Shown one piece after another: positions 63,682 to 63,934 of a stretch of 64,000 bases of DNA. Position 1 is the first letter of the stretch, and each line of letters begins with the position of its first letter. The notes under the pieces were generated by a model. That model was not told the DNA's origin. It did no database searches and saw only the letters and a program-made list of their open reading frames with translations. Position numbers and translations under genes: made by a program. The stretch comes from a virus, in the IMG/VR virus record IMGVR_UViG_3300046694_000196, positions 62,344 through 126,343 of that record. One strand, 5' to 3'.

Positions 63682-63881
63682 TGTACGTAATCCACGAGTC
63701 TGCTAGTATCCCCGCCGAAGAGTCCTATTCAGGCACGGCCTGGGAGGAGTCTCGTCTTGACCGCTCCCTCTACAGGAAGCAGTACCATGACTGGGACTGG
63801 GCGTGCACGCTGGCCTACGAGCTGCAGCGTCAGACCGGAATCCGTTTCAAAGTATCAGAAGCACCCATAGCTCAGCGGTAG
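63678..63881 (+). CDS. Small hypothetical protein
   Basis: GTGA overlap; end runs into the tRNA. Confidence 0.4.
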   Translation: MMYVIHESASIPAEESYSGTAWEESRLDRSLYRKQYHDWDWACTLAYELQRQTGIRFKVSEAPIAQR

Positions 63882-63934
63882 AGCAGGAATCTCTAAAATT
63901 CTTGGCGCCGGTTCGAGCCCGGCTGGGTGCACCA
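63861..63934 (+). tRNA. Amber suppressor tRNA (anticodon CTA)
   Basis: GCACCCA/TGGGTGC-A-CCA; GCTC-AGCGGTA-GAGC; GGAAT-CTCTAAA-ATTCT; GCCGG-TTCGAGC-CCGGC. Confidence 0.92.

Follow-up and report, generated by a model that had tools for sequence, protein, structure and literature searches.

Recoded phages are well-known carriers of suppressor tRNAs (bioRxiv 10.1101/2021.08.26.457843; PMC9523058). In the code-15 crAss-like and Lak phages of those studies, the phage brings its own Sup-CUA tRNA into a standard-code host, and in-frame TAG codons make genes dependent on that tRNA; the role proposed for this dependence is timing control. Such genomes contain many in-frame TAGs, mostly in late or lysis genes, rarely use TAG as a stop, and are low in GC (guanine plus cytosine). 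Here we analyse a 64,000-nucleotide stretch (the window; positions 62,344 to 126,343 of IMG/VR record IMGVR_UViG_3300046694_000196) of a phage with a different arrangement. The window carries a tRNA with a CUA anticodon, tRNA(CUA), and a single gene interrupted by TAG, at codon 4. In contrast to the code-15 phages, TAG ends 17% of the called genes (29 of 167), and a code-15 reading brings no gain. tRNA(CUA) is probably a working amber suppressor charged by a host aminoacyl-tRNA synthetase (aaRS), with the interrupted gene as the one identifiable client in the contig, the two forming a lock and key, or AND gate.

Suppressor tRNAs have also been described in large, tRNA-rich phages that use the standard code. 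Phage XacN1 carries an orphan suppressor whose target was not identified and which was tested only for extensions after annotated stops (PMC5852040); the targets of the suppressor tRNA of Stenotrophomonas phage Summit "are not identified" (PMC9022506); and no target was identified for the UCA suppressor tRNA of Atu_ph07 (PMC6102473). Unlike in those three phages, a target is identified here, and its stop lies at the N-terminus, where both extension tests and gene callers miss it. An engineered counterpart is the leak dampener, in which a TAG right after the start codon, together with a suppressor tRNA, silences leaky toxic genes (PMC7969014). It shares with the circuit proposed here an early amber codon, a host-charged suppressor and a protein made only with the tRNA. 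Its layout, a stop right after the start with negligible truncated product, is also that of the present gene family, in which TAG follows the ATG by 0-4 codons; the dampener is man-made, and uses supP (Leu) and an inducible promoter, whereas the present circuit would be natural.

The prfB gene for release factor 2 contains an early in-frame UGA and is autoregulated through a +1 frameshift that senses release factor 2. As proposed for the present locus, synthesis of a translation-related protein hinges on release factor against alternative decoding at an early in-frame stop; here, in contrast to the +1 frameshift, in-frame reading of the stop would fall to a dedicated tRNA, and the product of the gated gene is no release factor. 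E. coli supE and supF and T4 psu1 are elongator tRNAs with a CUA anticodon, as is tRNA(CUA), and each arose from a recognisable parent tRNA by a single-base change in the anticodon. tRNA(CUA), unlike these, belongs to a family without a clear parent isotype, with its own conserved acceptor end, that is conserved across many phages. Full-text literature searches turned up no account of a conserved amber gate on a single gene that is coupled to a phage tRNA; roughly a hundred relatives retain the pairing described here.

Results

An early in-frame TAG is conserved together with a CUA tRNA

The elements of the proposed gate are:

63861-63934, + strand: tRNA(CUA), an elongator of class I that encodes its CCA (ARAGORN, Rfam, sequence, family covariation)
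63893-63895, + strand: anticodon CTA, which reads UAG, between U33 (63892) and A37-A38 (ARAGORN and sequence)
51712-51987, + strand: candidate amber-gated client gene, ATG CTC GCC TAG followed by 87 sense codons and TGA (sequence, 80 related loci)
51698-51703, + strand: GAAGGA, a Shine-Dalgarno-like motif 8 nt ahead of the gated gene's ATG (sequence)

The gate TAG is codon 4 of the gene (51721-51723), and the conserved protein domain begins directly after it. The first canonical in-frame start past the TAG lies 22 codons downstream, within the conserved fold. When the contig was scanned for early gates (a start, at most 8 codons, a stop, and a long coding open reading frame (ORF) with a coding leader), only this gene was returned; other early-TAG candidates in the contig were rejected, none having a coding leader.

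An IMG/VR protein search with the gated gene found 110 relatives, and the best 80 of the 110 loci, 60 of them distinct, were kept. At all 80, TAG lies 0-4 codons after the ATG (codons 2-6), TAA or TGA never takes its place, and the conserved sequence (...VFHFNK...) starts one to a few codons past it. The position of the gate is kept in relatives down to 56% protein identity. This exclusive use of TAG is not an effect of base composition, because the same genes (the 60 distinct ones) terminate in TAA (42), TGA (14) and TAG (4). A Shine-Dalgarno-like motif precedes the ATG at 57 of the 60 distinct loci. The codon after the gate is ATT, ATC or ATA at 70 of the 80 loci, CCC in the window gene, and AAG, ACT, AAA, AAT, GTC or GTA at other loci.

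A CUA tRNA lies within 10 kb of the gated gene at 70 of the 80 loci. It is on the strand of the gated gene at 53 of 53 distinct loci, usually upstream, at a median distance of 543 bp, and at 47 loci it is the sole tRNA in 20 kb. Five further contigs carry a CUA tRNA outside the locus, bringing the total to 75 of 80 contigs. Of the five contigs left over, the gene is no more than ~200 bp from a contig end in three, and the other two, each 11 kb long and rated 4% complete, gave no CUA tRNA in a tRNA-model search. In the closest relative, one of the contigs with the tRNA outside the locus, the CUA tRNA lies ~11.5 kb downstream of the gated gene, a spacing like that in this phage. In the cultured Rhizobium phage RHph_I1_18 the gated gene is unannotated; it reads ATG AGT GAG TTC ATG TAG..., and a tRNA(cta) lies ~30 nt past its stop. 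Conditional readthrough, with the gene at 51712 as candidate, was among the options raised in a preliminary description of this DNA, and both the TAG kept throughout the relatives and the CUA tRNA in their contigs argue for it. On one related contig (L135 5553-6096), ~900 nt separate a tmRNA gene from the tRNA(CUA) and gated gene downstream of it.

AlphaFold2 models a two-domain relative of the gated protein with a mean predicted local distance difference test (pLDDT) score of 85.5. The mean over the first 10-residue block is 92, and a strand is placed at residues 2-12, directly after the TAG. According to this model, initiation at the internal Met would remove part of the fold. A Foldseek search of the PDB for the gated protein gave nothing at E <= 0.001, and VIA-align gave generic ACT/RRM-like matches only (Z about 5), for a C-terminal domain absent from this phage's copy.

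Upstream of the two elements lie:

51613-51689, + strand: tRNA-Arg(CCU), directly upstream of the gated gene (ARAGORN, Rfam)
51571-51599, + strand: sigma-70-type promoter-like site with extended -10, TTGACA-N14-TGATAAATA (motif search)
63352-63380, + strand: sigma-70-type promoter-like site, TTGACA-17-TAAACT with TG (consensus match only)

The site at 51571-51599 precedes tRNA-Arg(CCU) and the gated gene, which are probably in one transcript, and may serve as their promoter. The site at 63352-63380 is ~480 nt upstream of tRNA(CUA). The extended -10 motif (TTGACA-N13-15-TGNTAWAWW) has six matches in the window against none expected, at 1780, 20141, 42002, 51571, 51965 and 59494 on the + strand, and four of the six are just upstream of tRNA clusters. 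Early transcription of both tRNA(CUA) and the gated gene, with the tRNA adding delay, would fit, because similar sigma-70-like motifs precede both.

tRNA(CUA) is an ordinary elongator under selection

ARAGORN calls a 74-nt tRNA at 63861-63934 (+), with the anticodon cta at tRNA position 33; 66 nt separate it from the contig end. Rfam model RF00005 matches over its full length (1-71) at 68 bits (E 1.1e-12), the top score among 21 tRNA matches in the window and far above the gathering score of 29 bits. The structure has: an acceptor stem of 7 bp (GCACCCA/TGGGTGC); a 7-nt anticodon loop, C32-U33-CUA-A37-A38; a core with G18G19, T-loop GGTTCGA and a 4-nt variable loop; and a 3' end with discriminator A73 and CCA encoded at 63932-63934. 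The cloverleaf with U33, A37, CTA and encoded CCA that the preliminary description had read from the letters is seen alike by ARAGORN, by Rfam and in the sequence. A sequencing error in the anticodon, which would have undone that description, is excluded because the anticodon is invariant across 51 distinct related tRNAs.

Two other identities were rejected. tRNA-Pyl has an atypical core: its D-loop is very short, its variable loop has 3 nt, and the G18G19/T-psi-C interaction is absent. The "tRNA-Pyl" label that ARAGORN attaches automatically reflects the anticodon alone, because the core here, with its G18G19, GGTTCGA T-loop and 4-nt variable loop, is that of an ordinary class I elongator. 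An initiator type is also contradicted by the sequence, which has G-C at 1-72 and does not have three G-C pairs in its anticodon stem.

A nucleotide search with the window end gave no match among cultured phages. A 66-codon ORF with high GC at third codon positions (GC3), at 63681-63881 (+), overlaps the preceding gene at its start, through TGATG, and enters the tRNA(CUA) gene by 21 nt. Its TAG stop is formed by the tRNA D-loop, and 5' processing of the tRNA would remove this stop codon.

In an alignment of the 51 distinct CUA tRNAs from gated-gene loci, the anticodon and the loop positions U33, A37 and A38 are invariant. Across the same tRNAs, 93.3% of stem cells are paired, and compensatory (double) changes occur at 18 of 20 stem pairs. 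None of 500 shuffled controls reaches the observed values, and slid controls are 32-42% paired. The CUA tRNA is real and under selection.

The acceptor end of the family (G1-C72, C2-G71, G3-C70, A73) is near invariant and pairs 4-7 vary freely, a pattern that suggests that pairs 1-3 and A73 are identity elements. Pair 3-70 is A3-U70 in the window tRNA and G3-C70 in the closest relative. Among tRNAs of the same contigs, a GCG..CGC acceptor end otherwise marks tRNA-Gly, mostly with U73, and GCG..CGC-A also occurs in some tRNA-Arg(UCU) genes. Nearest-neighbour identity favours Gly, Thr and Arg as the parent isotype and isotype hidden Markov models favour Arg, Met and Gly, with margins of ~3 bits; neither comparison yields a clear parent. 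In E. coli, a class I tRNA that combines a CUA anticodon with U35 and A73 tends to be a substrate of lysyl- or glutaminyl-tRNA synthetase (LysRS or GlnRS). The candidates for the inserted residue are Gly, Arg, Lys and Gln, and the ambiguity of the isotype comparisons and of the acceptor end agrees with the initial view that sequence does not reveal which amino acid is charged. The identity of this residue may matter little to the gated protein, because the gate TAG sits in a non-conserved leader. A phage release factor or aaRS elsewhere in the genome had been proposed as something to look for; Pfam searches for the RF-1 domain (PF00472) and three aaRS families (PF00587, PF00749, PF00152) found no match in the 73%-complete contig. 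Because none of these three aaRS families was matched, a host enzyme would have to charge tRNA(CUA).

Related suppressor tRNAs occur in other phages. The annotated tRNA-Sup-CTA of Yersinia phage fHe-Yen9-04 (L124 2494-2566), and likewise of Serratia phage BF and the Erwinia pEa_SNUABM_12 group, all ~355-kb enterobacterial phages, matches the window tRNA at 87.5% identity across positions 8-61, with an anticodon stem-loop that agrees base for base and two mismatches in the acceptor stem. No obvious gated gene was found beside the tRNA-Sup-CTA of the jumbo phage fHe-Yen9-04. The opal suppressor tRNA(UCA) of Atu_ph07 (MF403008 430713-430787; L116 1501-1575) scores 68.5 bits on the covariance model of the CUA family.

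The phage uses the standard genetic code

The window is the right half of one 126,343-bp IMG/VR virus contig, classed as linear and 73% complete, with 58.8% GC and a GC3 of ~0.85. Among its products is a major capsid protein of T4 type (Pfam Gp23, E 4e-145), and the nearest cultured relative of the contig is RHph_I1_18 (63% identity in ribonucleotide reductase). This is a T4-like soil phage.

Genes were called with a codon-score caller trained on long high-GC3 ORFs of the contig. Code 11 gives 167 genes with a summed score of 17798 and the stops TGA (109), TAG (29) and TAA (29); with TAG read as sense, there are 153 genes and a score of 16722 at equal coding density. The comparison of codes proposed in the preliminary description reveals no gain from TAG as sense, since gene count and score fall at unchanged density. 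Its statement that the code is not fully reassigned holds, as do the TAG-ended ORFs it listed: 20136, 23539, 29237 and 59493 are ends of called genes, and an ORF ending at 37467 exists. Its two other options, C-terminal extensions and disruption of host TAG-terminated genes, find no support. In-frame coding signal follows 1 of 29 TAG stops, 4 of 29 TAA stops and 6 of 109 TGA stops, and is no commoner past TAG than past the other two.

Only one TAG in the whole contig has coding signal on both sides. The candidate that contains it (contig positions 15866-16477, -) was rejected as a second TAG-interrupted gene, its sole database match, to a Variovorax phage, being confined to the sequence ahead of the TAG; two genes sharing a frame are the probable explanation. 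Reassignment of TAG across the whole code was rejected on the absence of both a gain from TAG as sense and an excess of coding past TAG, and the phage uses the standard genetic code. None of the marks of code 15 was found: in-frame TAGs are not many and gene models do not improve, TAG is not rare as a stop, and the release-factor and three aaRS families searched for in the 73%-complete contig gave no match to a code-change module of the kind that some code-15 phages have.

ARAGORN finds 24 tRNAs in the contig, all within the window half. Four Rfam tRNA matches that it does not call (41-48 bits; 57474-57544, 23675-23746, 60784-60856 and 60202-60272, all +) may be atypical tRNAs. Outside the window, on its upstream side, 96 coding codons separate a TAA from the first start of an ORF that bears family-B DNA polymerase motifs (G000:C1:50958-52079); this suggests that the polymerase gene is split or interrupted.

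CUA tRNAs may have further clients

A pattern search of IMG/VR for the tRNA type gave at least 120 matching stretches. The 80 loci listed contain 65 CUA tRNAs, as called by ARAGORN, and 8 tRNA-Arg(UCU). The gated-gene family occurs within the small locus at 41 of the listed tRNA-anchored loci, TAG-gated at 39 and ungated at 2; on six more tRNA-anchored contigs among the matches listed, the gene lies elsewhere in the contig. At two loci beyond the 80 found by protein search, TAG lies 8 codons after the ATG.

Two jumbo-phage genomes that have the tRNA but not the gated gene, both complete or nearly so, contain an in-frame TAG in a PTH2-like peptidyl-tRNA hydrolase gene adjoining the CUA tRNA; the TAG is at codon 3 in one (Pfam PTH2, E 1.3e-28) and at about codon 36 in the other. 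These loci, and the PTH2 homologue of the window, are:

L259 (G024:C1:240343-243690): PTH2-like gene from about 1490, tRNA(CUA) at 1111-1186
L260 (G045:C1:254312-257590): PTH2-like gene at 1484-1800 (-), tRNA(CUA) at 1259-1333 (-)
Window, 18393-19031, + strand: ungated PTH2-family homologue (PF01981, 36 bits), far from tRNA(CUA) and the gated gene

Judged by their sequences, the PTH2-like genes appear to be a second family of amber-gated genes. A single-protein search for further gated PTH2 genes returned the query alone. In the jumbo phages Atu_ph07 and Phosso, the gated domain is present ungated, fused to an N-terminal extension (roughly 95 residues in the Atu_ph07 copy), two genes from a PTH2 gene and adjoining a kinase-phosphatase. 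The clients of CUA tRNAs seem to belong to one neighbourhood of tRNA/translation-upkeep genes, because PTH2-like genes are themselves gated, the domain lies near PTH2 in Atu_ph07 and Phosso, and a PTH2 homologue is present here.

Discussion

If tRNA(CUA) and the 51712 gene act as lock and key, the steps of the mechanism would be: initiation at the ATG preceded by the Shine-Dalgarno-like motif; arrival of the ribosome at UAG in codon 4; and competition for that codon. Without tRNA(CUA), release factor 1 would stop translation after three residues, and no gated protein would be made, because the next start codon lies well inside the fold. With charged tRNA(CUA), UAG would be read and the full protein produced, so that the protein would appear only once the phage tRNA is transcribed, processed and charged. 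All other phage genes would stay on the standard code. The placement of the stop at the very start would give a clean off state with no truncated protein. We favour the view that the gate is a delay or leak-proofing device for a protein tied to tRNA/translation upkeep; in general terms its purpose could be that of a timer, of leak-proofing, or of checking that the phage tRNA supply works.

Several points weigh against this reading. Expression, charging, UAG suppression and the purpose of the gate are what we infer from the genomes. The gated protein has no Pfam match, a weak PHROG match and no assigned function. tRNA(CUA) is 12 kb from the gated gene in this phage and does not adjoin it, a spacing shared by the closest relative. 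Among the matches listed, both ungated copies of the gene are near a CUA tRNA, and ~22 CUA-bearing contigs, 5 of them complete genomes, are without the gene; because of these ungated neighbours and gene-free contigs, tRNA(CUA) has other clients or roles. The contig is 73% complete, so further clients may be missing. With 29 of the 167 phage genes closed by TAG, strong suppression should carry a cost, and there is no sign among the called genes of extra back-up stops after TAG terminators. Suppression may be weak or limited to part of infection, given the cost that an efficient suppressor would carry with 17% TAG stops.

In one rival explanation, tRNA(CUA) is a general suppressor of host TAG stops or of many phage ones, yielding extended proteins that disturb host physiology or C-terminally extended phage isoforms, with the gated gene as a by-product or monitor. 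The abundance of TAG-ended phage genes would suit it, and the tRNA type is not for the gated gene alone, because it also occurs in complete genomes without the gene and near ungated copies. We nonetheless consider this explanation unlikely. Coding past the stop is found at 1 of 29 TAG stops against 4 of 29 for TAA and 6 of 109 for TGA, the sole TAG with coding on both flanks looks like two genes with a match only before the TAG, and in-silico readthrough of the amber stops of XacN1 gave no extensions (PMC5852040). At 47 loci, moreover, the sole tRNA is the CUA tRNA beside the gated gene. Another proposal, that the UAG is not read at all, would have a mini-ORF (ATG-X-TAG) end and translation restart at a non-canonical codon such as AUU, with tRNA(CUA) unrelated or inactive. 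AUU is a rare bacterial start, as in infC, and the ATT, ATC or ATA that follows the TAG at 70 of the 80 loci would supply such codons; CCC follows it here, and AAG, ACT, AAA, AAT, GTC and GTA elsewhere. Any stop could close a coupling mini-ORF, yet the stop is TAG in 80 of 80 loci whose genes mostly terminate in TAA, and the tight linkage to a CUA tRNA is left unexplained, which makes a restart very improbable.

Phage tRNAs also counter tRNA-cleaving defences, and the genome is rich in RNA-repair genes, including two RNA ligases, alongside its PTH2 homologue. tRNA(CUA) might accordingly be an anticodon-nuclease decoy or spare, or a transcript processing signal, its CUA incidental. We give such non-decoding roles scant credence: the anticodon and U33/A37/A38 are invariant in 51 diverged copies in which every stem covaries, as fits decoding, and a decoy would not explain an in-frame TAG that is universally co-conserved. 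Published models place the gain of a suppressor tRNA before recoding (bioRxiv 10.1101/2021.08.26.457843), and the tRNA and gate could on that basis be the first evolutionary step to full TAG reassignment (code 15) instead of a form of regulation. The modelled route starts from low-GC, TAG-depleted phages, whereas this phage has 58.8% GC and TAG as 17% of its stops, and a single gate has stayed fixed in place in relatives as distant as 56% protein identity and has not spread to other genes. The single-gene gate looks like a stable end state, and a passage towards code 15 is most unlikely.

An amber suppressor paired with one gated client, the reading we prefer, makes the 51712 gene a concrete, testable target where the XacN1, Summit and Atu_ph07 papers name none. 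A stop a few codons past the start causes gene callers to drop the gene and leaves readthrough-extension tests blind to it. The cultured RHph_I1_18 is a tractable experimental system for the gate, and confirmation would improve phage annotation, as the gated gene is unannotated in that phage. It is possible, though we hold this tentatively, that large standard-code phages use their suppressor tRNAs to open hidden amber-locked genes, such as those for the VFHFNK-motif protein and the PTH2-like proteins, and that tRNAs and genes together form a natural feed-forward or self-test circuit. If so, tRNA/translation-upkeep factors would be made only with the phage tRNA expressed, processed and charged, or with decoding beating release factor 1, and a class of amber-locked genes would answer the published question of what purpose orphan phage suppressor tRNAs serve. 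If confirmed, the gate would parallel in nature a design from synthetic biology, and would mean that a single reassigned codon can serve a phage as a private switch while its genetic code stays unchanged.
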